From an uncultured Candidatus Rokubacteria bacterium (GTDB lineage Bacteria > Methylomirabilota > Methylomirabilia > Rokubacteriales > CSP1-6): a stretch of DNA of 64,000 nt. Both the position numbers and the translations under genes were made by a program. The stretch covers positions 134,510 through 198,509 of the forward strand of contig CAVWWD010000011.1 in assembly GCA_963758635.1 (NCBI GenBank). Reading direction: 5' to 3'. The notes under the pieces were generated by a model that was not told the DNA's origin, made no database searches, and was given only the letters and a program-made list of their open reading frames with translations. How positions within the stretch are numbered: the first letter of the stretch is position 1; each line of letters opens with the position of its first letter. This document shows positions 7,798-46,948 of the stretch, piece by piece.

Positions 7798-10058
7798 GTG
7801 AGCCGGCGCCACTTCCTCCAGGGGATGACGGCGCTCGGCGGCCTCGTGCTCGCGGTGGGGTATCCCTCGGCGGCGCGCGGGCAGGAGGCCAAGAAGTACG
7901 GCGCGGACGGCATGCCCAACGGCTGGGTGGACAGCCCGTTGGTCTTCGTGTCGATCGCCGAGGACGGCACGGTGACGATCGTCTGTCACCGGTCGGAGAT
8001 GGGCCAGGGCGTGCGCACGAGCATGCCGATGATCGTGGCCGACGAGCTCGAGGCCGACTGGAAGCGGGTGCGCATCGCGCAGGCCCCGGGCGACGAGAAG
8101 CGGTTCGGCAACCAGGACACCGACGGCTCCCGCAGCACCCGGCACTTCTTCGAGCCGATGCGGCGATGCGGCGCCGCGGCGCGGATGATGCTGGAGGCCG
8201 CCGCGGCCGAGCGCTGGAAGGTGCCGGTGGCCGACGTGCAGGCGCAGAACCACGAGGTGGTGCACCGGCCCACGGGGCGGCGGCTCGGCTACGGCGCGCT
8301 CGCGAAGGCGGCCGCGGCCCAGCCGGCGCCGGCGCGGGACACCGTGCGCCTCAAGGACCCCGCGAAGTTCCGCTACATCGGCAAGGGACAGCTCAAGCTG
8401 GTCGACGGCCGCGACATCGTGACGGGCAAGGCGCAGTACGGCATCGACACGCGGCTGCCCGGCATGCTTCACGCCGTGATCGCGCGGCCGCCGGTCCACG
8501 GCGGCAAGGTGGCAAGCTTCGACGCCGCCGAGGCCCTGAAGGTGCCCGGCGTCGTCAAGGTGGTGCAGGTCGAGGAGAGCCCCCCGCCCGCGCACTTCAA
8601 CCCGGTGGGCGGCGTGGCGGTGATCGCACGCAACACGTGGGCGGCCATGCAGGGGCGCCGCGCCCTCAAGATCACGTGGGACGACGGCCCGAACGCGGTC
8701 TACGACTCCGCGGCGTACAAGGCCTCGCTGGAGGACTCGGCGCACAAGGCGGGCAAGGTCGTCAGGAACGACGGCGACTTCACGGCCGCGGCTGCGAGCG
8801 CGGCGCGCCGGGTCGAGGCCGAGTACTACATCCCCCACCTGGCCCACGCCACCATGGAGCCGCCCGCGGCGACGGCGCGCATCGAAGGCGGCAAGTGCGA
8901 GCTCTGGGGCTGCTTCCAGTCGCCGCAGGCCGCGCGCGACCTGGTGGCCAAGCGGCTCGGCATGACGCCCGACAACGTGACCGTGCACGTCACGATGCTG
9001 GGCGGCGGGTTCGGCCGGAAGTCGAAGTGCGACTTCGGCATCGAGGCGGCCGTGCTCTCGCGCGCGATGGACGGCAAGCCCGTGAAGGTGACGTGGACGC
9101 GCGAGGACGACCTGCACAACTCGTACTACCACACGGTCTCCGTGGAGCGCCTCGAGGCCGGCCTGGACGCGCAGGGCAAGACCGTGGCGTGGATGCACCG
9201 CACCGTGGCGCCCACCATCTTCTCCACGTTCGATCCCACCGCGAAGCACGAGGCGGCGCTCGAGCTGGGCATGGGCGTCATCAACGTGCCGTTCGCGATC
9301 CCGAACATCCGCATCGAGAACCCCGAGGCGATCGCCCACACGCGGATCGGCTGGTTCCGGTCCGTCTCGAACATCCCGCACGCCTTCGCCATCCAGTCGT
9401 TCGTGGCCGAGCTGGCCGCCGCCGCGGGGCGGGATCCCAAGGACGTCCTGCTGGACGTGATCGGGCCCGCGCGCCAGGTGAGCCCGGAGGCGCTGGGCGA
9501 CACCTGGAACCACGGCGAGTCGCCGGAGCGCTACCCGGTGGACACGGGCCGGCTGCGGCGCGTGGTCGAGGTGGTCGCGCGCGAGTCGGGCTGGGGCAAG
9601 ACGCTGCCGAAGGGCCGCGGGCTCGGCATCGCCGCGCACTACAGCTTCGTCAGCTACATCGCCGCGGTGGTGGAAGTCGCGGTGGACAGCGCGGGCGCGC
9701 TGACGATCCCCGGGTCGACATGGCGGTGGACTGCGGCGCCACCGTGAACCCCGACCGGGTGCGCGCGCAGATGGAAGGCGCGTGCGTGATGGGCGTGGGC
9801 ATCGCCACGGTCGGCGAGATCAGCTTCAAGCACGGGCGGGTCGAGCAGGACAACTTCAACACCTACGAGGTGACCCGCATGGACGGCGCCCCGCGGGAGA
9901 TCCGCGTGCACATCGTCCCCGGCGACTACGCCAAGCCCATGGGCGGCGTGGGCGAGCCGGGGGTGCCGCCCATCCCGCCCGCGCTCTGCAACGCGATCTT
10001 CGCGGCCACCGGCAAGCGGATTCGCCGCCTGCCCATCCGCGATCAGCTCAAGGCGTAG
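7798..10058 (+). CDS. molybdopterin-binding subunit (aldehyde oxidase / isoquinoline oxidoreductase beta type), frame interrupted
   Basis: Twin-arginine signal [15 protein letters not shown] at GTG 7798. The body is in ORF 7660..9747. The last ~115 aa (..[25 protein letters not shown]) are in the frame of ORF 8166..10058. The junction at the C-run ~9705-9712 needs one extra nt. Confidence 0.85.
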
Positions 10059-14020: not shown

Positions 14021-15561
14021 TCACCTCGGCCTGACCTTCAGATCCTCGTACGGCGCCGACCACAGGAAGCCGGCGATGAGGCCGATCCCCGACTCCTCCA
14101 CCCGGGGCCCGACGCCGTTCAGTCCCGCGTTCAGGTAGATCGGCGCGACCATCGCCTTCTCGTGGACGAGCTGCTGGATGCGCTCCAGCGTCGCCCCGCG
14201 CCGCCGGGCGTCGAGCTCGGTCGCCTGCTCCTGGACCAGTCCGTCGATGTCCGGATAGCTCCCGTAGGCGTAGGTGCCGCCGCTGGCGATGAACGCCTCG
14301 ATGCGCGTGGCCGCGTTGCCGAAGGCGCCGCTCGCGCCGTGGACAAGGCCCCGGTACTTCTTCTCCGCGAAGCCCCGGAAGAACGCGGCGCGCTCGATGG
14401 GCCGGAGCTTCACCCGGATGCCGGCGGCGTTCAGGTAGTTCACCACGGGCTCGCCGATGTTGGTGATCGCCGCGTCGCAGAAGTAGTCGCCCGCGTCGAA
14501 GCCGTTCCGGTAGCCGGCCTCGGCCAGGAGCTGCTTGGCCCGGGCCGCGTCGTAGGCGTAGCCGGGAGGCTGCCAGTAGAACTCGAAGCTCGACGGGATG
14601 ATGCTCCAGCCGATCCGGGCGTGACCGAGCGCGTCGGCCTGGTTGATGGCCTGCCGGTCGATGGCGTGGTTGGCGGCCAGCCGCACGCGCCGATCCGACC
14701 ACGGGGACTTCGGGTCCCACTGCTCGGTGAAGTAGACCCAGTGCGTGGCCAGCCCGACGTTGGGCCGGAGCGTGAGGCCCGGCGTCCGCCGCAGGTCCTC
14801 GGCCAGCTCGCCGCGCACCGCGTAGGCGATGTCCACCTCGCCGCGCTTGAGCGTGGCGAGCCGCGTGGCCTCGTCGGGAATCGCCTTGAGGACGAGGCGC
14901 TTCACGTTCGGCACCTTGCGCCAGTACTGCTCGAAGGCCTCCAGCACCAGCTCCACGCCCGGCGTGAACGACACGAAGCGGTACGGGCCAGCGCCGATCG
15001 GAGCCTTCTTGAAGCCCTCGTCGCCGACCTTGTCGACGTACTTCTTCGGCACGATCCACGCGGCGCCCGTGGCGTTCAGGTAGAAGGTCAGGAAGTCGGG
15101 CCAGGGCCGCTTGAGTCGGATCCGCACGCGGAGCGGATCGGGCGTCTCGATCGCGCTCACCCGCTCCTTGAGGAGCTTGGCGGACGCGCCGCGGTAGCGC
15201 TCGAAGCGAGAACTTCACGTCCTCCGCGGTGACCGGTGTCGCCGTTGTGGAACTTCACGCCCTTGCGGAGCACGAACTCGTGGACGAGGCCGTCCGGCGA
15301 CGCGCTCCACGATTCCGCCAGGCTGGGCGCCGCGGGCGCGCCGGGCATCGGCTTCACCAGGGCGTCGTGCAGCGCGTAGATGATCATGTACGGCGTGATG
15401 ATGCCGGAGGTCTCGGCGGGATCGAACCACGTCGGGGCCAGCGAGACGTGCACGGCCCACGTCAGCTGCCCCTCGGGCGCGGCGACGCCAGCGGCGGCGC
15501 CGAGCGAGACGATCGTCAGGACGAGCGAGAGAGCGAAGAGGCCTCGAACGGATCTCCTCAT
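14021..15561 (-). CDS. ABC transporter substrate-binding protein (family 5), frame interrupted twice
   Basis: Signal peptide + N-terminus in ORF 15157..15561, body in ORF 14021..15160. Between them the true reading ..KFHNGD.VTAEDVKFSFERYRGASAKLLKERV.. requires removing one nt near 15235 and one near 15213. Confidence 0.8.
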
Positions 15562-15693
15562 GGAACCCCCCCTCGGACGCGGGTCAGTTCACACGCGATG
15601 TCCTCGTCGATGCTCGGATCGGGTCATCCTCCTTTCCGACCGCCGCGCCGCGCGGTCGATCTCCGATGTTGCGCGAGGGTCTGACCCCCGGGG

Positions 15694-24934: not shown

Positions 24935-25112
24935 ACCGACGCCTTGGGCCGCGTGACGAAAGGTGCCGAGACGAGCGGTGTGGCGCGGGAGACGGTTGAC
25001 GCGCTCCGCCCGGAAGGCGATCCTGCGCGTGGCCGGGCCGGAGGGGACCGGGCGGCTCGACCAGGCGGGGCGAGCGGGCCATGAATTCACCGGACGACAC
25101 GGTGAGGCGTAT

Positions 25113-26174
25113 ATGACTGCAAGGCTGCCGGAACGCGGTCGATCCTGGGACGATCTCTCCCGGGCGATGGCAGATCTGGATCGCTCGCGTGGTCGCGTGA
25201 TCTCCATCCTCCACCGGGCTGCATGGGCATCTCTCTGCGTCGCCCTGCTGATCGGAGCGATCTTTCAGGAGGTCCCGGCGCAGTCCGGGAAGCTGATCGA
25301 CGCCTCCGTCGTGACGCTGAGAGACGAGGAAGTCCGCAGGCTGGAAGTGGGGCAGCCCGACATCCGCGCGATCCTGGGCGGTGTCGAGATCAAGTCCATC
25401 GCATATCTCAGCGACGATCTGAGGGTCAAGGGCTACCTGGTCGCCCCCCGGAGGGGCGAGAGGCTGCCGTGCGTGATCTACAACCGCGGGGGTAACCGCG
25501 AGTTCGGTGCCCTCACCGACCTCAGCGCGGCCGGCCTGCTGGCCCGGATCGCGTCGTGGGGATACGTGGTCGTCGCCAGTCAGTACCGTGGCACCGCCGG
25601 CGGCCAGGGCAAGGACGAGTTCGGTGGGAGCAACGTCGGTGACGTGCTCAACCTCCTCCCGCTCCTGGGCGCATTGCCCCAGGCCGACCCCACCCGGGTC
25701 GGCATGTACGGCTGGAGCCGCGGCGGGATGATGACGTACCTCGCGCTGGCCAGGACAGATCGGATCGCGGCGGCCGTCGTGGCTTCGGGGGTGGCCGACC
25801 TCGAGGACAACGCCAGGCGGCGCCCAGAGATGGAGACGGGCGTGTTCGCCCAGCTCATCCCGGAGTACGCCAGCGACAGAGAAGCCGCCCTGGCCGCGCG
25901 TTCGGCGGTGAGGTGGCCGGACAAGCTCCACAAGCGCACGCCCATGCTGCTGCTGCACGGCGGCGCGGACTGGCGAGTGCACCCGGGTCAGGCCCTCGCC
26001 ATGGCCTCGAAGCTCTACGAGAGCCGACATCCGTTCCGGTTCGTGTTCTTCGAGGGCGGGGATCACGCGCTGGGCGAGCACCGCGGGGAGGTCGATCGTC
26101 TGGTCAAGGAGTGGCTCGACGCGTACGTACGCGACCGGAAGCAATGGCCGAGCCTCGAGCCGCACGGCCGCTGA
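25113..26174 (+). CDS. S9-family (prolyl-oligopeptidase/dienelactone-hydrolase-like) alpha/beta hydrolase
   Basis: Nucleophile elbow GWSRGG, later GGADWRV and GGDHAL. N-terminal hydrophobic anchor AAWASLCVALLIGAIF. The start (ATG 25113) is approximate. Confidence 0.8.
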   Translation: MTARLPERGRSWDDLSRAMADLDRSRGRVISILHRAAWASLCVALLIGAIFQEVPAQSGKLIDASVVTLRDEEVRRLEVGQPDIRAILGGVEIKSIAYLSDDLRVKGYLVAPRRGERLPCVIYNRGGNREFGALTDLSAAGLLARIASWGYVVVASQYRGTAGGQGKDEFGGSNVGDVLNLLPLLGALPQADPTRVGMYGWSRGGMMTYLALARTDRIAAAVVASGVADLEDNARRRPEMETGVFAQLIPEYASDREAALAARSAVRWPDKLHKRTPMLLLHGGADWRVHPGQALAMASKLYESRHPFRFVFFEGGDHALGEHRGEVDRLVKEWLDAYVRDRKQWPSLEPHGR

Positions 26175-34854: not shown

Positions 34855-36441
34855 TCAGACGCGAACCACGTTGGCCGCGCGCGGGCCGGCGGCGGTCATC
34901 TGGTAGGCGTACGCCTCCTTCAGCTTGACGTTGCCGCTGTCCGTGTAGACGAGCAGCCGGGTCCCGTCCGTGCGCATCTTGACCATCCCGAAGGCGACCC
35001 GGCTGAACGCGAAGAAGCGCTTGTCCTTCTTGCCGAGGGCGACGAGGTCGATCACCTTCGAGCCCTTCTTGAGCTTCACCCCCTTGCGCATGTCGTGGAA
35101 GTCCGTGTCCACGTACCCGCGCACGGAGAAGAAGGCCACGAGCTCGGTGACCAGGATGATCGGCTTGTCGATGCGGGAGCTCTTGCCGAGGGCCCCCACC
35201 AGGGACGCTCGCGGGTGGATGAACTCCTTCTGCGCGCTCTCGTCGCCCGACGACACCACCGACACGAGCGGCGACACCGCGTCCACGAACGCCGTGGAGA
35301 AGTCGGCGGAGCCGTGATGCGGCACCTTCAGGACCTCCGCCTGGAGCTGTGCGCGGTGGCGCTCTACCAGGTCCAGCTCCGCCTCCGCGTTCAGGTCGCC
35401 GGCGAACAGGAAGCGGACGTCGCCGTAGGTGAGCCGCAGGATGACGGAGTGCCCGTTGATGGTGTGGGACGCGGAGTGCCCTTTGAACACCTCCGGGCGC
35501 GGCTGGGCGGGATTGAAGTCGATCTGGACGTCGTCGGGCGGGTTGCCCAGGAAGCGGAGCCCCGGCTTGCCGTTCACCGGCGTGACGATCGGCCCCAGCA
35601 CCTCCACCTTCATCCGGTCGGCGAGGGGCTCGCCCTCGAGGAGGAAGTCGAAGGCGTCGTCGTCGCCCTGGGCGAGCCGCCGGAAGCGGATCGGCGCGTG
35701 CGACGCCGCGTTGCGCTTCTCGTACGCGTCCAGCGCGGCCCGCCAGCGCTTGAACGGCTCGTTCATCTGCTCGCGGGGATGGTCGAGAAGGTTCTCGACG
35801 AGCCCGGTGATCACGGTCCGGCCGTTCACCTTCGCCGTCGGCCCCAGCAGCTTCACGTCCGGGACGTTCTTGCCGTCCGCGTCCTTCGACGGGCGCTTCA
35901 CGAGGCCGTTGTGGTACACGCGCGCCGGCCGGATGAAGAGCCGCTTGAACGGCTCGTCGTTCTTCTCGGACCGATGGATCTCCGTCAGGCCCAGGAAGTG
36001 GTCCGCGTCGCCGTGGGTGATCAGGATGCAGTCCACCTCGAGCGGACGATCCACGCTCGTGTTCCGGTAGCGCCCGGCCAGGTACCGGGCGAAGAGCTGG
36101 TTGTCGCCGCCGTCGATCAGCATCACCTTGCCCGCGGGGGTCTCGAGCACCGCTCCGTCCCCCTGCTGGACGTCCACGAAGTTGACCTTGAGCACCCGGT
36201 TGTCGGCCCTGGGCAGGACGACCGAGCCGCCCGGCGGCTGCTTGATCTTCCCGGTGATGGGCACCGGCTTCACCGAGCCGTCGGGCTGCGCCACCATCTT
36301 CGTGGCCTTCACGCGGACCGGGTTCGCCGCCGGGTCGCCGACGACCTCGACGAAGTCGCCCCACGCGAGGTAGCGGATGAACTCTCCGTCCTCGTCGGAC
36401 ACCTTGGCGAGATCGACGTTGATCACGTGGGTGGCGGGCAT
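34855..36441 (-). CDS. MBL-fold metallo-hydrolase (ComEC/Rec2-type beta-lactamase domain, soluble)
   Basis: 528 aa. AAGGGAG RBS. VDVQQGDGAVLETPAGKVMLIDGG, ILITHGDADH, LKVPHHGS. Extra N- and C-terminal domains. No TM segments or signal peptide. Confidence 0.8.
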   Translation of the reverse strand: MPATHVINVDLAKVSDEDGEFIRYLAWGDFVEVVGDPAANPVRVKATKMVAQPDGSVKPVPITGKIKQPPGGSVVLPRADNRVLKVNFVDVQQGDGAVLETPAGKVMLIDGGDNQLFARYLAGRYRNTSVDRPLEVDCILITHGDADHFLGLTEIHRSEKNDEPFKRLFIRPARVYHNGLVKRPSKDADGKNVPDVKLLGPTAKVNGRTVITGLVENLLDHPREQMNEPFKRWRAALDAYEKRNAASHAPIRFRRLAQGDDDAFDFLLEGEPLADRMKVEVLGPIVTPVNGKPGLRFLGNPPDDVQIDFNPAQPRPEVFKGHSASHTINGHSVILRLTYGDVRFLFAGDLNAEAELDLVERHRAQLQAEVLKVPHHGSADFSTAFVDAVSPLVSVVSSGDESAQKEFIHPRASLVGALGKSSRIDKPIILVTELVAFFSVRGYVDTDFHDMRKGVKLKKGSKVIDLVALGKKDKRFFAFSRVAFGMVKMRTDGTRLLVYTDSGNVKLKEAYAYQMTAAGPRAANVVRV

Positions 36442-36526
36442 GACGGTCTCCCTTCGTCGGCGCGCTCGGTCGCGCCCGGCACGACGACCGGCCTCGCGGA
36501 GTCGCGCGCCCCGGCGCCGGACGGCG

Positions 36527-37954
36527 CTACCGGCCCGGCGCCAGCCGAGTCGCCAGGAGCTCCAGGATGTACTCCCGGTTCTGCTGCACCACCTTGGCCG
36601 CGGAGACGGCGAGCAGCTCCCGATCGCAGGCCGAGGCCACGTAGAACCGGGTGGGGATCTCGGCGAGGCGCTCCACCACGTCCGCCGCCGACTCGAGGCG
36701 CGGCTCCTCCCGGCGGCACGCCTCGGGCAGGTCGCTCAGGTCGTCCCGCCATTTGGCGTCGGTATGCCGGAGGACGACGATGCGCATCGTGTCGTTGTCG
36801 GGGAAGACGCCCTCGAGCTGGAGGCTCCGCCAGAAGAACGCGGCGTAGGTGCCGGCGCGCTCCTCCATGATGCTGGGGATGCGCGAGAAGTCATACGTCA
36901 GGAGCGAGAACGGCTGGGCCCGTAGGCTGAGGCGTCGCTCGCCCACGTCGAAGGGAAACGAGCTGTCGAAGGTGATGATGAGGCCCCGGCGGGCCTTCTT
37001 GTCCTGGAGCTTCTTGAGGAACACGAAGAGGAGCGTCTCGATGCCGGCGTTCTCGTAGAGCCCGCCGTCCCCGAAGTGCCAGTAGCGCTTCTCGCCCTCC
37101 ACGCGGATGGTGAACGGGCCCACGAGCGGCGGGAAGGAGGCCGAGCCGGCCACGGCGCCGGCCACCCGGAACTCGCACGGGTCGATGTGCAGGTCGTGGG
37201 GGGTCAGCGCCAGCACCCGCTGCCAGCGCCGCTCGAGCCACGGGGAGATGTCGGCGGGGAGGCCGCGCTGAGCCAGCGACCGCCGCAGGTCCACGAAGAA
37301 GTCGTAGCGCGAGTCCTCGGACGGGACCGTGGTGATGACGAACCGCCGGCCGTTGTTGAACAGGGTCGTGTTGAACATCATGTGGGGGCTGTCGCCGCGC
37401 ACCTCCCGGGCGAGGAGATCGGCGAACTTGCCCGTGCCGAGCAGGCGTTCCTCGAGGATCTCCCGGAGGGAGCGGGCGGCGAGGGCGGAGTCGAGCCAGC
37501 GGAACGTGCCGAGCTGGCGCCAGAGCAGCGCGCCCTCGAAGTCCTGGCTCACCAGCTCCCGGAAGCGGCCGAAGAACGCCCGGTACTCCTCGGTGAGGGT
37601 CCCGGCCGGGGTGAGCATGGGCGTCTCGCGCGGCGGCTTGTGCTTGGCGAAGTACGCCGCCGGCAGCCCGCCGCCGGACACGCTGGAGACGTACATGACG
37701 CGCTCCAGCACGGACCCCCCGCCCGGCGCGGGGAGGTTCGCGAGCGCCTCGAGTCCGGCCTGGCCGAAGAGCGCCGCCCGGCTCCCCCCGCCCGAGAGGG
37801 CCAGCCCCACCAGGAGGTCCGCGTCGGGGGCGGCGGCGGTGCAACTCGTGTCGGACGCGGCCCGGGGCAGCGTGATCGACAGCGGCGCGGCGCAGCCGAC
37901 GAGGAGTATGACGAGGACGGAGAGAACCGAGAACCGGCAGGGCGACAGGCTCAT
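36527..37954 (-). CDS. patatin-like phospholipase, lipoprotein
   Basis: 475 aa. GGGAGGAG RBS. Lipobox ILLVGC. Oxyanion LSGGGSRAA, nucleophile region VSSVSGGG, catalytic-Asp motif FGDGGLYEN. Confidence 0.85.
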   Translation of the reverse strand: MSLSPCRFSVLSVLVILLVGCAAPLSITLPRAASDTSCTAAAPDADLLVGLALSGGGSRAALFGQAGLEALANLPAPGGGSVLERVMYVSSVSGGGLPAAYFAKHKPPRETPMLTPAGTLTEEYRAFFGRFRELVSQDFEGALLWRQLGTFRWLDSALAARSLREILEERLLGTGKFADLLAREVRGDSPHMMFNTTLFNNGRRFVITTVPSEDSRYDFFVDLRRSLAQRGLPADISPWLERRWQRVLALTPHDLHIDPCEFRVAGAVAGSASFPPLVGPFTIRVEGEKRYWHFGDGGLYENAGIETLLFVFLKKLQDKKARRGLIITFDSSFPFDVGERRLSLRAQPFSLLTYDFSRIPSIMEERAGTYAAFFWRSLQLEGVFPDNDTMRIVVLRHTDAKWRDDLSDLPEACRREEPRLESAADVVERLAEIPTRFYVASACDRELLAVSAAKVVQQNREYILELLATRLAPGR

Positions 37955-38531
37955 GACGCTCCTCCCGCGTGGCGTGAGAGCTTCCGAGGCGATCGCTTCG
38001 CGTCCGCCTATCCTACCCGAAGCCCTCGCGCCCCGGGGCCGCGGCTGCCGTCGCTCCGGCGATGCGGCGCTAGCGCGCGCGGACGGCCTGGATGAGCGCG
38101 CGGGCGTTGCTCCGGCTTCGGGAGATCCACTTCCCCTCCTTACATGCCGACGCTATGAAAGCCGCGTGAGTCATGAGCAACTTCATCGAACAAAGCACAG
38201 AACCAACGAATCTAGACTCTACGCTCTGGCGCCGTACGGCTGCTGGTTCTCTTCCCAGATGCCCAGCCACGGAAAGTCCGCTTGCTTCCACGTGTAGCCG
38301 AACGCGACGATTGGCGCATTGTCGCGGCATCTTCGCGCCGTTCCATCGCAAAGCCGAACACGTACCCCCTGTTCGTCGACAGCCGGTATCATCCCATCAT
38401 CATCGTTCGACGCGATTAAAGCCGAATTACTTCGGCCCTGTTGTCCGAATGGCCTGAGGGGAGTACATTCGTGCCGGCCCCGCACAGTCGTGGGATGCGA
38501 CCCGAGAGCGGGGAAAGAGTAGGAGGCTGCT

Positions 38532-38900
38532 ATGGGGTTTCTCGACAAGATGAAGGGCCTCGCTGGCGGCACCAGCCTCGAAGCCACCATCGATCAGCAT
38601 GCTCCGGAGATCAGTGAAAAGGTTGTCACGGCGCTCGGACCCCTGATTGAGAAGAGCGGCGCGGTGCTCCACGATGACGTGCAGTATCGGAATCTGGTAG
38701 CGACACCTCTGTTCTTGATGCTGCCGCCGCTCGTCCAGTTGCTGGGTCGTGAGCGCATCAAGTGGGACCCCATCATGCTCGACGTGCGCAACGAGGTGAT
38801 TGTGGCCGATGGCGGTCGACTGAGCATCCGTCCCGGCGCTCCCGAGATCGTGCTCGCGATCGTGCGGAGACACTTCGCGGCGCCGGCGAGCACGGTATAG
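38532..38900 (+). CDS. hypothetical protein
   Basis: 122 aa. AGGAGG 6 nt upstream of the ATG. Balanced composition and lower GC than the backbone. Immediately upstream of the TIR gene. Confidence 0.55.
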   Translation: MGFLDKMKGLAGGTSLEATIDQHAPEISEKVVTALGPLIEKSGAVLHDDVQYRNLVATPLFLMLPPLVQLLGRERIKWDPIMLDVRNEVIVADGGRLSIRPGAPEIVLAIVRRHFAAPASTV

Positions 38901-38938
38901 CCCGGGGCGACCGATTCGGGCAGCTTCGCTGACCGCCG

Positions 38939-40491
38939 ATGGCTCACGTGTTCGTCTGCTACGATCGCGAGGATCGCGATTTTGCCGAGGTCGTCCAGGC
39001 CAAGCTGGAGAGAGCGGGCCACAAGACCGCTATGGACCTCGATATCCTGAGCGCGGGAGACGACTGGCAGGCCACGCTCGACCTCGCCATCCGAAGCTCC
39101 GACGCCATCGTGGTCATCATGGCGCCCGAAGCACGAGCGTCCGATTACGTCGCGTACGAGTGGGCCTTCGCGCTCGGAGCGGGTGTGAAGGTGATTCCGC
39201 TCGAGCTCAGGACGACTCCGTTTCCGCCTCGGCTGGATGGCCTGCATCGTCTGGACTTCACGGGGAAGAGCCGGCCATGGGACACGCTTCTGGCGGAAGT
39301 GGCGCGAGCAGAGGCCAGCCGCCCGGCATCGAGCATCGCGATTGATCCGGGCACGCCCGCTGCTGTGACGCAGGCGGTGCGCGCAATCGACAGCCTCGTT
39401 CCCGAGGAGCGACTCGCGGCGGTCAATACTCTCGCTCAGACGGACCACCCAACAGCTCTCGACGCTCTGACGCGCGCCCTCGAACATCCCGTCAAGGACG
39501 TCCGCGTCGCGGCGGCGAGCGTGTTCCCCGACCGTACGAACCCAAAGATCGTCCCCGGTCTCATCGAGGCCCAACGGGACGAGTGGGAGACGTGGTTCAA
39601 GCGTGGGATGTTCGGCAACCCGCCGAACCGGCTCTACGAAGGCGTCACCAGGCTTGGAGCGTCCGCCGTCCCCGGCCTTTTGGACGCCTTGAAGCGGCTC
39701 GGCGTCGAACCGGGCACGCATGACCAGTTGCGTCGGGTACTCCTCCAAGCCCTCGGGAGGACCAGGAGCGCCGCGGCATTACCCTCGCTTCAAGAGGCCC
39801 TGCAGGATGAGGACGCAGACCATCCGCCGGGTTGCCGCCGGTGCTCTCGGTGAGCTCGGAGAACCGGCTGGGGCACCCGCTCTTCGGCTAGCCCTGGCGG
39901 ATCCACACGGCGGCGTTCGGGGCGAGGCCGCCGAGAGCCTGGGTCTTCTGAAAGACGCCGCGGCCGTTTCAGACCTCATCGAGTTTCTCCAGAACGATAC
40001 TCCGTCAGTGCGGGCCACGGCGGCGGCAGCGCTGGGAAAGATCGGGGACCCGTCATCGGTGCCGGGGCTCATCGTTGCGCTGGGAGACGAGGACTACAGC
40101 GTGAAGAAGGCTGCCGTTGAGGCGCTGGGACGCCTCGGTGACGCGGCGGCGATTTCACACCTGAGGCCGCTGCTGAATCAGCACGATACTGGTAACGTCA
40201 CGGAGATGGATATGGAGGTCATGACGGCGCTGGTGCGACTGCACGATACTGAGTCTTTGACGGCGATTGGGGACCGCCTTATCAGCTTCCGAGGTGGCAC
40301 CTACGGAGGTGACGTGTACGAGGAGTTAGTGCGATATAGGGATGAAGGCGTCCAGGTGCTCCTCCGTATCCTGAGCAGTGCGGAACACGCTGTCTGACGC
40401 CATTCAATCAGAAGCGGCCAAGGCGCTCGCCTCTATCCGCACCCCCGAAGTCGTGAGTGCGGTGAAGGCCTGGAGGCGGAAACACGGCTGA
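38939..40491 (+). CDS. TIR-domain protein with C-terminal HEAT (PBS-lyase-type) repeats, frame interrupted twice
   Basis: N-terminal TIR ([64 protein letters not shown]). HEAT repeats (VRVAAASV.., [50 protein letters not shown]). Frames join at ~39815 and ~40395 when one nt is removed at each. The final repeat ..[30 protein letters not shown] ends at 40491. Confidence 0.75.
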
Positions 40492-40511
40492 CCCGCGACT
40501 TCCTCGCGGAA

Positions 40512-40649
40512 CCCATGGAGATGTTGGGCACGAAACGGCCGTCCATCACGTCGATGTGGATCTGATTCGCCCCCGCCGCCTCCACCCGCGCGATCTCCTC
40601 GCCGAGGATGCCGAAGTCGGCGCTGAGGATCGACGGCGCGACTTGACCA
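40512..40649 (-). pseudogene. rpe: ribulose-phosphate 3-epimerase, N-terminal stub
   Basis: The minus strand reads [45 protein letters not shown]. Homology then stops ~20 nt from the TIR-HEAT stop. There is a frameshift right after the ATG. Confidence 0.6.
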
Positions 40650-40734
40650 TGCGTGCCTTATACCGCGCCGGTGCGGGGGATCATAGAGCCCGGCCAGGCG
40701 GGGAGCCTCGCGCCCGGGCAACGGGTATCCGGCC

Positions 40735-41115
40735 CAGATGGGCCCCGGCGCGTTGAACCGCCGTGACCATGTCCGTCGGCCCGCCGTCAATGCCGCGCGC
40801 GCGAGCACCGCGCCGGTACGCGTCGCCCAGCACGCGCGTATACACGCGCAGAACTGCGCGGCTCGGCCCGTGATTCCACGCCATCTGGTAGCGCAGCCCA
40901 TACGGTACCGTCAGCACCCATTGCCGCACCGGCACCCACGGCAGCACCTCATCCACCAGGTGCGCCGCCCGCTCCGTCATCCGCCGGCCCCCGCAGCTCG
41001 GACAGAAAGCCCCGGCCCTTAAACGAAAACGGCGCCAGGTGCTCGCGCCGGCGCGTCGGCACGCCTCCGGCTTGACCGTGGCCAGGAGACCGGCGCAGCG
41101 ACCGAGTAGCCGGGG
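40735..41115 (-). mobile_element. IS91-family (rolling-circle, Y2) transposase remnant
   Basis: ..CRRCGREHLAPFSFKGRGF/CPSCGGRRMTERAAHLVDEVLPWVPVRQWVLTVPYGLRYQMAWNHGPSRAVLRVYTRVLGDAYRR..MVTAVQR. Zinc-binding + start of the catalytic region only, with one internal frameshift. Both ends are missing. Confidence 0.65.
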
Positions 41116-44653: not shown

Positions 44654-46948
44654 TCACGCCCCGGCGCGGATGTCCTCGATGAGCTTGCCGGCGATGTACC
44701 GGCCCAGCGCGTACACCGTGTAGCAGGGGTTCACGCCGAGCGACGTGGGCAGGATCGACGAGTCGGCCACGTAGAGGCCGTCCACGTCCCACGATCGTCC
44801 GCTCGCATCCACCACGTCGCGTCGCGCGTTCCCGCCCAGCGCGCACCCGCCCATGGGGTGGCCGCTCGTGATCTGGATGCGCTGGTCCTGGACGAGCTGC
44901 AGGTTCAGCACGGCGTCGATCTCCTCCGGGCCGGTCAGGATCAGCGGCCGGTGGCTGTTGAAGAACACGCGGCGGGCGCCCGCCGCGAACATGATCCGCG
45001 ACCCCGTCCGCAGCGCGTCGAGCCACCCCTGATGGTCCTCCTCGGCCAGCGCGTACTCGAACCCCTTCGGCGTCACGCGCCCGACCGGCCGATCGCGGAA
45101 CATGACCGCGAGCGTCATCGTCTGGTTGAAACGCTTCATGAAGGCCTGGTGGCTCTCCGGCGACTCGTACGGCATCAGCTGCGCGTGAGCGAGCGGATGG
45201 TTCAGCAGGCCTTCCAGCGCGTAGCGCACGTGGTCACGGGCTGGATCGACCGCGGCCTGATCGGCAACCTCGTACTTCTTGACGAAGTAGCCCATGGGGG
45301 GCGTGGCCGCGGAGGGGAAGAGGGCCTCGTCGAAGTCCCCGCAGAACGTGACGGTCGCATGCGTCGAGAAGCGCTCCCCGACCGCGGGCTCCACGTTCCT
45401 TGGCGCCCCGGATGCCCGGCACGCCGCTCTGCATGAGGATGCGCGGCGACGAGAAGGGGCCGGCGGCCAGCACCACGCGTCGCGCCCGGACCTCGACGCG
45501 CTCCCGGACGACGCCCCGCGAGTCGGTGAGGTGCGCGACCACGCCCGTGACCCGATGCGTGCGCCCGGCGCGCCCGTCGTCGGGCAGCTTCTCGAGCAGC
45601 AGCTCGTCGACCCGGCAGTTGGCCACGAGCTGGGCCCCCCGGCGCGCGGCCATGGGCAGCACCACGTTCAGGGGCGTGAGCTTGCGGTTGTAGCGGCAGC
45701 CGAGGTCGCAGTACCCGCAGCCGATGCACTGGTGCGCGTTGCGCACGGTGGGCCCATGATGCGGCATCCCCAGGGCCATCGCGCCGCGGCGGAGGGCCAG
45801 GTTGTGGCCAGAGATCTGGGTCGCCGACACCGGCGCGATGCGCAGCAGCTTCTTGATCGCCTCCAGGTGGGGCACGAGGTCCTCGTACGTGAAGTCGGCG
45901 CCGTTCACCTCGCGCCAGTCCCGCACCACCGGCCGCGGCGGCTCGAAGGCGAGCGCGTGGTTGATGGTGGCGGAGCCGCCCACGAGCTTGCCGGTCACCA
46001 CGGCGGTGGTGACGGTGGGGATCTCGCGGCGGAACAGCTTGATCCACCGAGAACTCGGTGTCGAAGATGCGCGGCATCATGAGCCGCTCGCGCTGGAGGA
46101 AGTCGGCGGGCTCGAGGAAGTCGCCCTTCTCGAGGATCAGGACCCGCTGCGTCGTGTGCGCGGCCAGCTCGGCGGCGACGAACGACCCGCCCGCCCCCGA
46201 CCCGACCACCACGACGTCGGTCTCGAGGACCAGGCGGTCTCCGCCGCCGACCGCGCGCGCCGCCTCCAGGCCCGTCCGCAGCGCCGGAGTGGGGCACCAC
46301 GCGGCGCCGGAGGATGGCCACGTTGTCGTCCGTCTCCTTCGCCAGCTCGTACGAGGTCGACGCCGCGAGGTCCGCGTCACGCCGCGCGGGATCCGACAGC
46401 CACGGCCCCGGGTACCGCATGACCTTCCACGCTACCTTCTCGTTGATGTAGATGGGCGCGGTCCCGATGAACTTCGCGCCGCTGAAGATGTTGCGCATCG
46501 CCCGGAGTTCGCTGTCCCGCAGGAACAGGAAGTAGCGGGTGGCGTCCTCGGTGGCGAAGTTGCGCAGCTGCAGCCGCGCGGGCAGCCCGTGTCGGGTGGA
46601 GAACGTCCGGGTGAAGGTCGGCAGCACGTTGAGGAAGTCGATCAGGAACTTGATGTTCGACAGGAACTCCTCGCCCTGCGCCCAGGCGAACTGCGCGTAG
46701 GCGTCGACGAGGTCGTAGTCGGGGTCCTCGCTCGCGAGGCGGCGCCGGATCTCCGTGCCGGGCGGGTTGAAGCCGTCGATGATCTTGGCGACGACCTCAC
46801 GCTCGACGGAGTGGAAGACGGGCGCGGCATCGCCCAGCCGCTGACGCTCGATCTGGCCGCGGAGCGTCCCGCAGGAGAGAGGCGACGACGCCAGAACCGC
46901 CACGCTCGACGCGCGGACCACGCGGGACAGGAACTGGCGCCGGCTCAT
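44654..46948 (-). CDS. GMC-family FAD oxidoreductase fused to a Tat-signal N-terminal domain, at least 3 frame interruptions
   Basis: Tat signal MSRRQFLSRVV at ATG 46948 (ORF 45995..47077). FAD fold DVVVVGSGAGG (ORF 45202..46380). Middle part in ORF 45234..46001. GMC C-terminus ..HPMGGCALG..YVADSSILPTSLGVNP (ORF 44654..45394). The frames join at ~46310, ~46046 and ~45399. Confidence 0.8.

Follow-up and report, generated by a model that had tools for sequence, protein, structure and literature searches.

A TIR-HEAT protein encoded on a transferable cassette of a Rokubacteria contig: a candidate single-chain NADase-like sensor

The window analysed here, a 64-kb stretch of contig CAVWWD010000011.1 from an uncultured Candidatus Rokubacteria bacterium, contains a compact cassette composed of a leader, a small open reading frame (ORF) for a protein of 122 amino acids (aa) and a gene for a protein with an N-terminal TIR domain followed by HEAT repeats, referred to below as TIR-HEAT. 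It is quite possible, if short of probable, that this is an imported, promoter-carrying cassette whose main gene encodes a single-chain, NADase-like TIR-HEAT sensor, probably directed against phages, that the small ORF is an accessory, and that the frame breaks in the main gene are probably artefacts. In the proposed mechanism, the HEAT solenoid would bind a trigger, probably a phage protein, and binding would relieve autoinhibition or drive TIR-TIR assembly; the TIR domain would then cleave NAD+ or turn it into a signal, and the infected cell would stop growing. This scheme is proposed because DSR2 (SIR2-HEAT) and Vulcan (NIR-HEAT) work in this way, and it is by analogy with them that we infer all steps beyond the presence of a TIR domain with a glutamate at the catalytic position, fused to HEAT repeats. 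The features of the cassette are as follows, with coordinates of the window.

38433-40491, plus strand: cassette of 2.06 kb (leader, small ORF and TIR-HEAT gene), delimited by the limits of blastn homology and by GC content.
38433-38531, plus strand: leader of ~100 nucleotides (nt), conserved from the very start of the cassette in the window and in contigs L094, L095, L001 and L003.
38532-38900, plus strand: ORF for the 122-aa accessory protein, with 8 close homologues and a ratio of nonsynonymous to synonymous substitution rates (dN/dS) of 0.13.
38939-39316, plus strand: TIR domain (Pfam TIR_2), residues 1-126, with the codon of the candidate catalytic Glu74 at 39158-39160.
39359-40491, plus strand: HEAT-repeat solenoid of ~11 repeats, residues ~141-516, a candidate sensor arm (Pfam HEAT matches, AlphaFold2 model).
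39820-39821, plus strand: frame disruption 1, an additional C not present in any homologue (codon alignment with L001, L006 and L010).
40383-40384, plus strand: frame disruption 2, a 2-nt gap relative to L001 in a length-variable loop (codon alignment).

The TIR-HEAT gene starts at an ATG at 38939, 38 nt past the small ORF, and as assembled it is divided into an ORF of 304 aa (38939-39853), an ORF of 225 aa in the next frame (39720-40397) and a tail in the third frame with its stop codon at 40489-40491. The repaired protein is 516 aa long and can be aligned over its full length with homologues of 498-564 aa, in agreement with the original prediction, a model's reading of the DNA sequence, of a ~517-aa protein located 38 nt downstream of the small ORF. 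The TIR domain assigned there was recovered in Pfam, where residues 4-114 match positions 1-114 of the 122 positions of TIR_2 (PF13676) with an E-value of 1.6e-21 and a score of 77.5 bits, exceeding the gathering score of 28 by which Pfam membership is defined, and the rest of the protein gives matches to HEAT_2, HEAT_PBS and HEAT well above their cut-offs. In an AlphaFold2 model based on a 36-sequence alignment (pLDDT 90.1, pTM 0.71), residues 1-126 form a TIR fold of five strands, followed by a linker and by 22 helices corresponding to ~11 HEAT repeats, so that the earlier count of at least six repeats proved conservative. Foldseek comparison of the full model with the PDB returned only HEAT/ARM solenoids (alphaRep, importin-alpha) and is uninformative on the TIR domain.

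Enzymatic potential was evaluated from the conservation of the TIR domain. Within an alignment of 36 family members, E74 is kept in 35 and lies within an S..Y/H-V-x-Y-E-W-x-F-A-L-G motif in which S68, W75, F77, A78 and G80 are invariant; in the AlphaFold2 model it is part of helix 69-80. A profile built from the TIR domain only matched AbTir (3e-7) and SARM1 (4e-6) in the PDB, as well as TIR-APAZ, TIR-STING and Cat1. The hmmsearch alignment of AbTir to the TIR profile ends at profile position 74, opposite the Glu of ..DWTNYE, and in the hhalign comparison E74 falls on residue 82 of SARM1 561-701, which corresponds to E642. The suggestion that the Glu of ..SDYVAYEW.. occupies the catalytic position is thereby borne out, and these alignments support Glu74 as a candidate catalytic Glu in the helix alphaC position of AbTir and SARM1.

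The two parts of the protein differ in their rate of evolution, as determined in two syntenic comparisons. Between L006 and L098, amino-acid identity is 93-97% for the flanking genes and 82.5% for TIR-HEAT as a whole (92% for the TIR part and 79% for the HEAT part), and between L099 and L100 it is 82-87% for the flanks (70% for one small hypothetical ORF) and 65% for TIR-HEAT (86% and 58% for its TIR and HEAT parts, respectively). In the first of these pairs, synonymous divergence (dS) is similar across the locus, at 0.26-0.48, and nonsynonymous divergence (dN) reaches 0.10 in TIR-HEAT versus 0.017-0.036 in its neighbours; for the HEAT part, dN/dS amounts to 0.26, with up to 0.42 in windows of 60 codons, versus 0.05-0.11 in the flanks. 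The HEAT part thus accumulates three to five times more amino-acid change than the flanking genes and is the fastest-evolving part of the locus, the TIR part changing at a rate like that of the flanking genes. This is what would be expected of a sensor under changing selection, in which the effector is conserved and the attached repeat arm diverges quickly.

Together with its leader, the gene pair forms a discrete, sharply bounded cassette that occurs in at least three unrelated contexts at 82-99.7% nt identity, in one of them beside an rve-type insertion sequence (IS). Homology to metagenome contigs L001-L005 (blastn, 82% nt identity) spans 38432-40486, and in these contigs the pair is located between genes for an amidohydrolase and an FAD/BBE oxidase. 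The short-read contig L094 (99.7% identical) is homologous rightwards from 38435, with an rve-type transposase to the left of the cassette in place of the spacer found in the window, and the end of this IS lies at most 3 nt from the point where the homology of the 82% copies also ends. In the third context, the pair lies between genes for a major facilitator superfamily (MFS) transporter and a metallo-beta-lactamase (MBL) hydrolase. The transposase of L094, a contig from another sample, is 390 aa long, is encoded at 58-1230 on the minus strand and abuts the left edge of the cassette. The shared sequence starts ~100 nt 5' of the small ORF, at TTGTCC-17 nt-TACATT, which is conserved in the 82% copies and is, by eye, a candidate for a weak sigma-70-like promoter with 8 of 12 consensus positions; it scored under the threshold in a promoter scan. 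No Rfam element was matched in the leader (38433-38531), and no terminator was predicted, including between the two genes. The cassette edges are not marked by flanking repeats, a tRNA gene or an Rfam element, and a search there for target-site duplications and terminal inverted repeats gave only short GC-rich chance pairs.

The composition of the cassette likewise points to import. GC content is 0.60-0.67 across ~38000 to ~40600 versus 0.70-0.75 on either side (400-nt windows), which matches the drop described earlier around ~38.1-40.5 kb. The cassette itself has a GC content of 0.648, between flanks of 0.699 and 0.734, and is much nearer to the loci of Vicinamibacterales-like relatives (0.62-0.65) than to the host flanks (0.70-0.73); the nearest named TIR-HEAT protein comes from a Vicinamibacterales metagenome-assembled genome (MAG). 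The simplest account is that it was imported, possibly from another phylum, the donor being a lower-GC lineage, likely of ~63% GC and similar to Vicinamibacterales, and the recipient a chromosome of ~71% GC. This host is probably Candidatus Rokuibacteriota, as a molybdoenzyme subunit encoded nearby has 100% identity with a protein labelled as such. The earlier view of the segment as acquired cargo is therefore upheld by its sharp edges, its GC content lower than that of the host, its unrelated contexts and the IS adjacent to it in one of them.

A word-indexed search returned 1116 proteins at E<=1e-3, ~45 of which are full-length TIR and HEAT proteins with 37-76% identity; the YEW[AI]FALG motif of the TIR domain also occurs in shorter architectures. 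Intact full-length homologues were found in Acidobacteriota, Nitrosomonas, Myxococcaceae, Chloroflexota, Verrucomicrobiota and one Methanothrix MAG, and a scan of one genome per species located relatives in Vicinamibacterales, Nitrosomonas, Gammaproteobacteria, Myxococcaceae, Chloroflexota, Verrucomicrobiota and one Methanothrix MAG. In the seven distinct contexts that were read, no recognisable defence or mobile genes were present except the IS of L094. Two arrangements are stably syntenic, namely Pro_dh, TIR-HEAT and M20 peptidase in homologues P0003 and P0004, and PQQ-MBL-(FAD)-MFS, TIR-HEAT and MBL in P0008, P0009 and P0010. Clustering of the ORFs within 5 kb at 78 loci revealed no recurrent partner among the close full-length members, and at distant loci the recurring clusters are of generic kinds (histidine kinase, glycosyltransferase, Ser/Thr kinase, FHA). 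In the clade of P0008, P0009 and P0010, a Lactamase_B gene of 273-288 aa overlaps the TIR-HEAT stop by 4-22 nt (L099 8545-9366, L100 6443-7309 and the contig of P0009), which suggests translational coupling of TIR-HEAT with an MBL-fold hydrolase in this lineage only. Five of 148 neighbour ORFs (loci L014-L038) encode TIR_2 proteins themselves, for example at L024 8001-8777, indicating tandem TIR paralogues in some Chloroflexota loci.

The small ORF is preceded by AGGAGG 5 nt before its ATG, consistent with the strong ribosome-binding site predicted earlier for a 122-aa ORF at 38532-38900. Its close homologues share 59-98% identity, and the dN/dS value given above, obtained against the 82% copy L001, identifies it as a real gene under purifying selection. 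Pfam, NCBIfam, PADLOC and PHROG gave no match for the protein itself or for 52 distant relatives. AlphaFold2 (pLDDT 74) models it as a helical protein containing a single beta-hairpin, for which Foldseek found nothing in the PDB at E<1; a winged-helix regulator was considered and set aside, the weak structure matches (E 2-8) not being evidence for it. A profile search recovered 64 representative clusters, mostly of proteins of 100-200 aa, and in some relatives the domain is N-terminal on TPR, WD40, zinc-ribbon, GYF/DUF4190 or Hsp70 proteins. Sequence comparison places the small ORF in a domain family of ~90 aa (P0142-P0205) that is undescribed and has the consensus ..DP.W..LP.P.RL.GR.RL.WD..., and the fusion pattern fits an adaptor-like protein-interaction domain. 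In L096, a 379-aa TPR fusion of this domain is followed by a 135-aa unannotated ORF. No TIR gene was seen near the closest outgroups of the small ORF in the contexts that were read.

Wherever present, the small ORF is always inside the cassette, and it stands beside the closest TIR-HEAT genes only, being found by profile search at none of 80 species-representative GTDB loci. It is lacking from P0003, P0004, P0008, P0010, P0014 and P0027, and P0009 carries it at a locus where P0008 and P0010 do not. In a neighbour-joining tree, TIR-HEAT members linked to the small ORF and solo members interleave, for which presence in the ancestor of the clade followed by several losses is the parsimonious account, making the small ORF a dispensable accessory. 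It is thus a lineage-specific accessory, putatively a modulator or an adaptor, and not a core partner.

The sequences around the cassette include the following features.

37955-38432, strand not assigned: AT-richer spacer (GC 0.60-0.64) with minus-strand ORF fragments.
40511-40642, minus strand: 5' stub of rpe (ribulose-phosphate 3-epimerase), ~44 matched codons (tblastn with E. coli Rpe).
40720-41070, minus strand: N-terminal remnant of an IS91-family transposase, consisting of the Zn-binding domain and a short continuation (Pfam, reading frame).

The rpe stub, read from 40642 to 40511, corresponds to residues 6-49 of E. coli Rpe (59% identity, E=6e-13 in a tblastn search). It lacks a start codon in frame, and 19 nt separate its end from the stop codon of TIR-HEAT; tblastn found no further piece of rpe within the window. 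Just upstream of it, an ATG-GTC-AAG occurs one frame off at 40643-40665 on the minus strand, and the stub may accordingly contain an additional frame shift. Beyond it, Zn_Tnp_IS91 was matched at 40906-41070 on the minus strand (E=4.3e-6, 27.1 bits versus a cut-off of 26.3), in a reading frame that extends to about 40720 and then stops. The truncated rpe close to the TIR-HEAT stop and the IS91 remnant following it are thus both as first described. The ORF fragments of the spacer, such as ..FGYTWKQADFPWLGIWEEN.., gave no Pfam or PHROG match and are perhaps the debris of an earlier gene. Contig L095 has the last 63 nt of the spacer (38369-38432) in common with the window, and the junction therefore exists in another sample and is not unique to this assembly. 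Directly to the left, 34855-37954 (minus strand, host-like GC content) encodes a patatin-like phospholipase of 475 aa and then an MBL-fold protein of 528 aa, the N-terminus of which matches the LmuA, RTasMBL, Avs1a and PDC-M48B models of PADLOC at 1e-9 to 5e-15; these genes could be a second defence-like pair. Elsewhere in the window, ARAGORN called a 90-nt tRNA-Arg(ccg) at 25399-25488 (minus strand) within a Peptidase_S9 ORF of the opposite strand (24957-26174), which is probably a false positive.

Codon alignment with intact homologues placed the breaks of the TIR-HEAT gene at an extra C at 39820/39821 and at a 2-nt gap after 40383. The two 1-nt corrections called for by the original prediction were right in effect, both breaks being +1 shifts; the frame that follows the second site matches the C-termini of homologues. 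In a short-read contig from ERR11571139 that encodes an identical small protein, the TIR-HEAT frame is open for 462 aa to the contig end and therefore reads through the first site, and in the TIR region the window differs from L094 by three changes only, all of which are synonymous. Other genes of the window are broken as well. The gene for an iorB-like molybdopterin subunit loses its frame at ~9710 (9708-9711, plus strand) in the context CCCCGGG, and the protein P0206 of another Ca. Rokuibacteriota assembly is 99.7% identical upstream of the break (frame 1) and 100% identical downstream (frame 3), which is direct evidence of indel errors in the assembly. An SBP_bac_5 solute-binding gene (14024-15588, minus strand; break at ~15166-15237) and a GMC oxidoreductase gene (44657-46076, minus strand; break at 45237-45419, with a G6 run at 45296) are each a single gene in two overlapping frames. 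In all, there are at least five frame breaks in the 64 kb, and at least three genes besides TIR-HEAT are affected; a scan for further frame shifts based on GC at third codon positions was too ambiguous at 71% GC to provide a reliable count. Since at least three other genes of the window are frame-broken, the frame shifts say little on gene death, and frame shifts in this assembly should not be read as pseudogenes without checking the reads. It is fairly probable that the two breaks of TIR-HEAT are assembly indels rather than mutations, and this copy may be intact despite its apparent frame shifts.

Several observations weigh against an imported, intact antiphage NADase. The neighbours of the homologues are housekeeping genes (proline dehydrogenase/M20 peptidase, folD/HtrA, ThiC/BacA/glutamate synthase, MFS/MBL), and PADLOC and Pfam recognised no defence system among the 148 neighbour ORFs of 25 species-representative loci, a small sample from poorly studied phyla in which the only matches were further TIR/HEAT domains, one kinase-type PD-T4-6 and one mad6. 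TIR-HEAT was not found in phages and was found on a plasmid in a single, distant copy; the architecture is not among the models of PADLOC 2.0, which gave no full-length match. The HEAT dN/dS is below 1, so that weaker constraint could explain the faster change, the conserved Glu is found in non-catalytic animal TIRs too, and the best PDB sequence match of the TIR domain is a Hydra Toll-receptor-related TIR. Both break sites are outside long homopolymers, and the stretch around them is littered with gene debris (the rpe stub and the IS91 remnant). By guilt by association, the family is unlike defence-island genes, and the expectation that its homologues would be linked to defence or mobile contexts failed, conserved synteny among housekeeping genes having been found. 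The main rival is a physiological NAD+ sensor or signal generator with SARM1-like logic, in which the arm would respond to a metabolite or protein of the cell itself, leaving the TIR domain to adjust NAD+ or make a signal of the cyclic ADP-ribose type for cell physiology. It is rather unlikely overall, even if it would explain the stable vertical inheritance in metabolic-gene synteny of two distinct lineages, in which TIR-HEAT and its neighbours have equal dS, the lack of defence-system neighbours, the match of the TIR profile to the SARM1 TIR and the MBL-fold gene that overlaps the stop in one clade, suggesting an operon with a hydrolase. Against it stand the fast HEAT arm, which would be unusual for a fixed endogenous ligand, the patchy spread across phyla and the existence of a mobile cassette form, and a domain order opposite to that of SARM1 with no SAM oligomerisation domain. 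Distinctly less probable again is the fuller proposition that TIR-HEAT is a chromosomal, vertically inherited SARM1 analogue whose fast-changing HEAT arm reads an endogenous or environmental cue and whose TIR domain sets the NAD+ level or gives off an NAD-derived signal, that the 122-aa protein founds an adaptor domain linking to Hsp70, TPR and WD40 machines, and that phage defence is not involved. It is also quite improbable that the TIR domain is a non-catalytic scaffold serving only protein-protein assembly, as in MyD88 and the Toll-like receptors, with the HEAT arm as a docking platform: its top PDB sequence matches are indeed the Hydra TIR and MyD88, and the aromatic residue preceding the Glu is Tyr or His versus Trp in AbTir and SARM1, but Glu74 is nearly invariant inside an invariant motif and the profile matches the proven NADases AbTir, SARM1 and TIR-APAZ at E~1e-6 to 1e-7. 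To our knowledge, the bacterial TIR proteins tested to date are mostly enzymes, which also argues against a scaffold.

The state and the composition of the cassette raise two further alternatives. A dead gene, inactivated by two real indels within a decaying, IS-ridden stretch, is a serious if doubtful possibility: the breaks fall within 570 nt of each other, neither of them in a long homopolymer, the surroundings contain a start-less rpe stub, the IS91 remnant and unassigned fragments, and the frame-shifted 304-aa product is on record from this contig only. This has to be set against the at least three other broken genes of the window, one of them judged against a 100%-identical protein of another assembly, against the ERR11571139 contig that is open across the first site, and against a sequence which, indels aside, has no stops or other lesions, aligns end to end with intact homologues and differs from near-identical copies by synonymous changes. 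An obligate two-gene module, in which TIR-HEAT could not do without the 122-aa protein as its partner (a sensor, antitoxin or immunity factor), is quite improbable. The pair is kept with a spacer of 35-38 nt and co-transferred in the cassette in at least three contexts, the small ORF is strongly constrained and no terminator is predicted between the genes; yet the small ORF is missing upstream of P0003, P0004, P0008, P0010, P0014 and P0027 and at all 80 GTDB loci, the locus at which P0009 has it is without it in P0008 and P0010, its closest relatives beyond the 122-aa family adjoin unrelated genes with no TIR nearby, and the small ORF and TIR-HEAT have no profile-profile similarity and hence do not form a homotypic pair through effector-associated domains (EADs). 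The two-gene module first proposed therefore holds in so far as the pair travels in the cassette and the small ORF is under purifying selection, and does not hold in so far as the small ORF is confined to one narrow clade and is missing at the same locus in close relatives. A type II toxin-antitoxin pair was rejected, as solo TIR-HEAT genes are common, even at the same locus in sister lineages.

If the proposed NADase-like sensor is correct, TIR would be the third enzyme class in the design of an NADase joined to a HEAT sensor, after SIR2 (DSR2) and NIR (Vulcan), and it would follow that bacterial immunity uses HEAT solenoids as a general and interchangeable module for sensing triggers. Members of the family occur in soil phyla whose defence repertoires are almost unknown (Acidobacteriota, Rokubacteria, Nitrosomonas, Chloroflexota), and the fast-evolving HEAT arm provides a concrete place to seek trigger-binding sites.

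The claim that no named system has this architecture is right in that PADLOC has no model of it, and a literature search found no paper using 'TIR-HEAT' as a term; it needs qualification in that DSR2 and Vulcan are single-protein precedents for an NADase joined to HEAT repeats. Among other known systems, Thoeris also has a bacterial TIR with a Glu at the catalytic position, and weak matches were obtained to ThsB (E=0.004) and ThcB4 (25 bits versus a cut-off of 220). Thoeris membership was rejected on these scores, which are far under the family cut-offs, and on the lack of a ThsA-like neighbour, no ThsA-type (SIR2/Macro/SLOG) partner being present in the seven distinct contexts; the TIR of TIR-HEAT is instead fused to its own presumed sensor. 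The small ORF resembles the EADs of NTP-dependent conflict systems in being a ~100-aa, mostly helical, non-enzymatic domain that is also found at the ends of TPR, WD40 and Hsp70 proteins. What defines an EAD is that the partner protein carries a second, cognate copy of it (Kaur et al. 2020, PMC7159879), and an EAD-type adaptor pair was rejected, TIR-HEAT having no cognate copy (hhalign probability 0.5%) and Pfam giving no EAD match. SARM1, the animal ARM-SAM-TIR NAD+ hydrolase, is likewise a TIR NADase under the control of helical repeats of the ARM/HEAT class, whereas TIR-HEAT has the reverse order, no SAM domains and repeats of the PBS-lyase HEAT type, and SARM1 senses the balance of nicotinamide mononucleotide and NAD+.

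The nearest parallels are the two single-protein antiphage systems. DSR2 has an N-terminal SIR2 NADase and a HEAT cavity that binds a phage tail-tube activator or the inhibitor DSAD1 (PMC11263360), and it shares with TIR-HEAT an N-terminal NADase (putative in the latter) and a long HEAT region, within a single-gene abortive-infection logic. It differs in its effector, TIR-HEAT being without a SIR2 match in Pfam and PADLOC, in its size (~1005 aa), in its additional helix-turn-helix, helix-bundle and C-terminal domains and its tetrameric state, and in having no sequence relationship to TIR-HEAT beyond the HEAT repeats. Vulcan (NIR/DUF4062-HEAT), which has a small phage protein as its trigger and requires its catalytic Glu, depletes NAD+ on infection, and NIR clusters apart from TIR (bioRxiv 10.64898/2026.09.04.749371). 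Like Vulcan, TIR-HEAT joins an N-terminal TIR-like domain, predicted here to cleave NAD+ through a catalytic Glu, to C-terminal HEAT repeats in one polypeptide, and it is a single-gene HEAT fusion, most homologues being without a conserved partner. The differences are that TIR-HEAT has TIR_2 (77.5 bits) and no match to DUF4062 at E<=0.01 in Pfam searches with both halves, that it occurs in soil Acidobacteriota and Rokubacteria and Vulcan in an Enterobacter host, and that it has an extra small upstream gene in one clade. Taken together, these comparisons make TIR-HEAT, by analogy, a plausible TIR version of the single-protein NADase-HEAT sensor, belonging to neither the Vulcan nor the DSR2 family.

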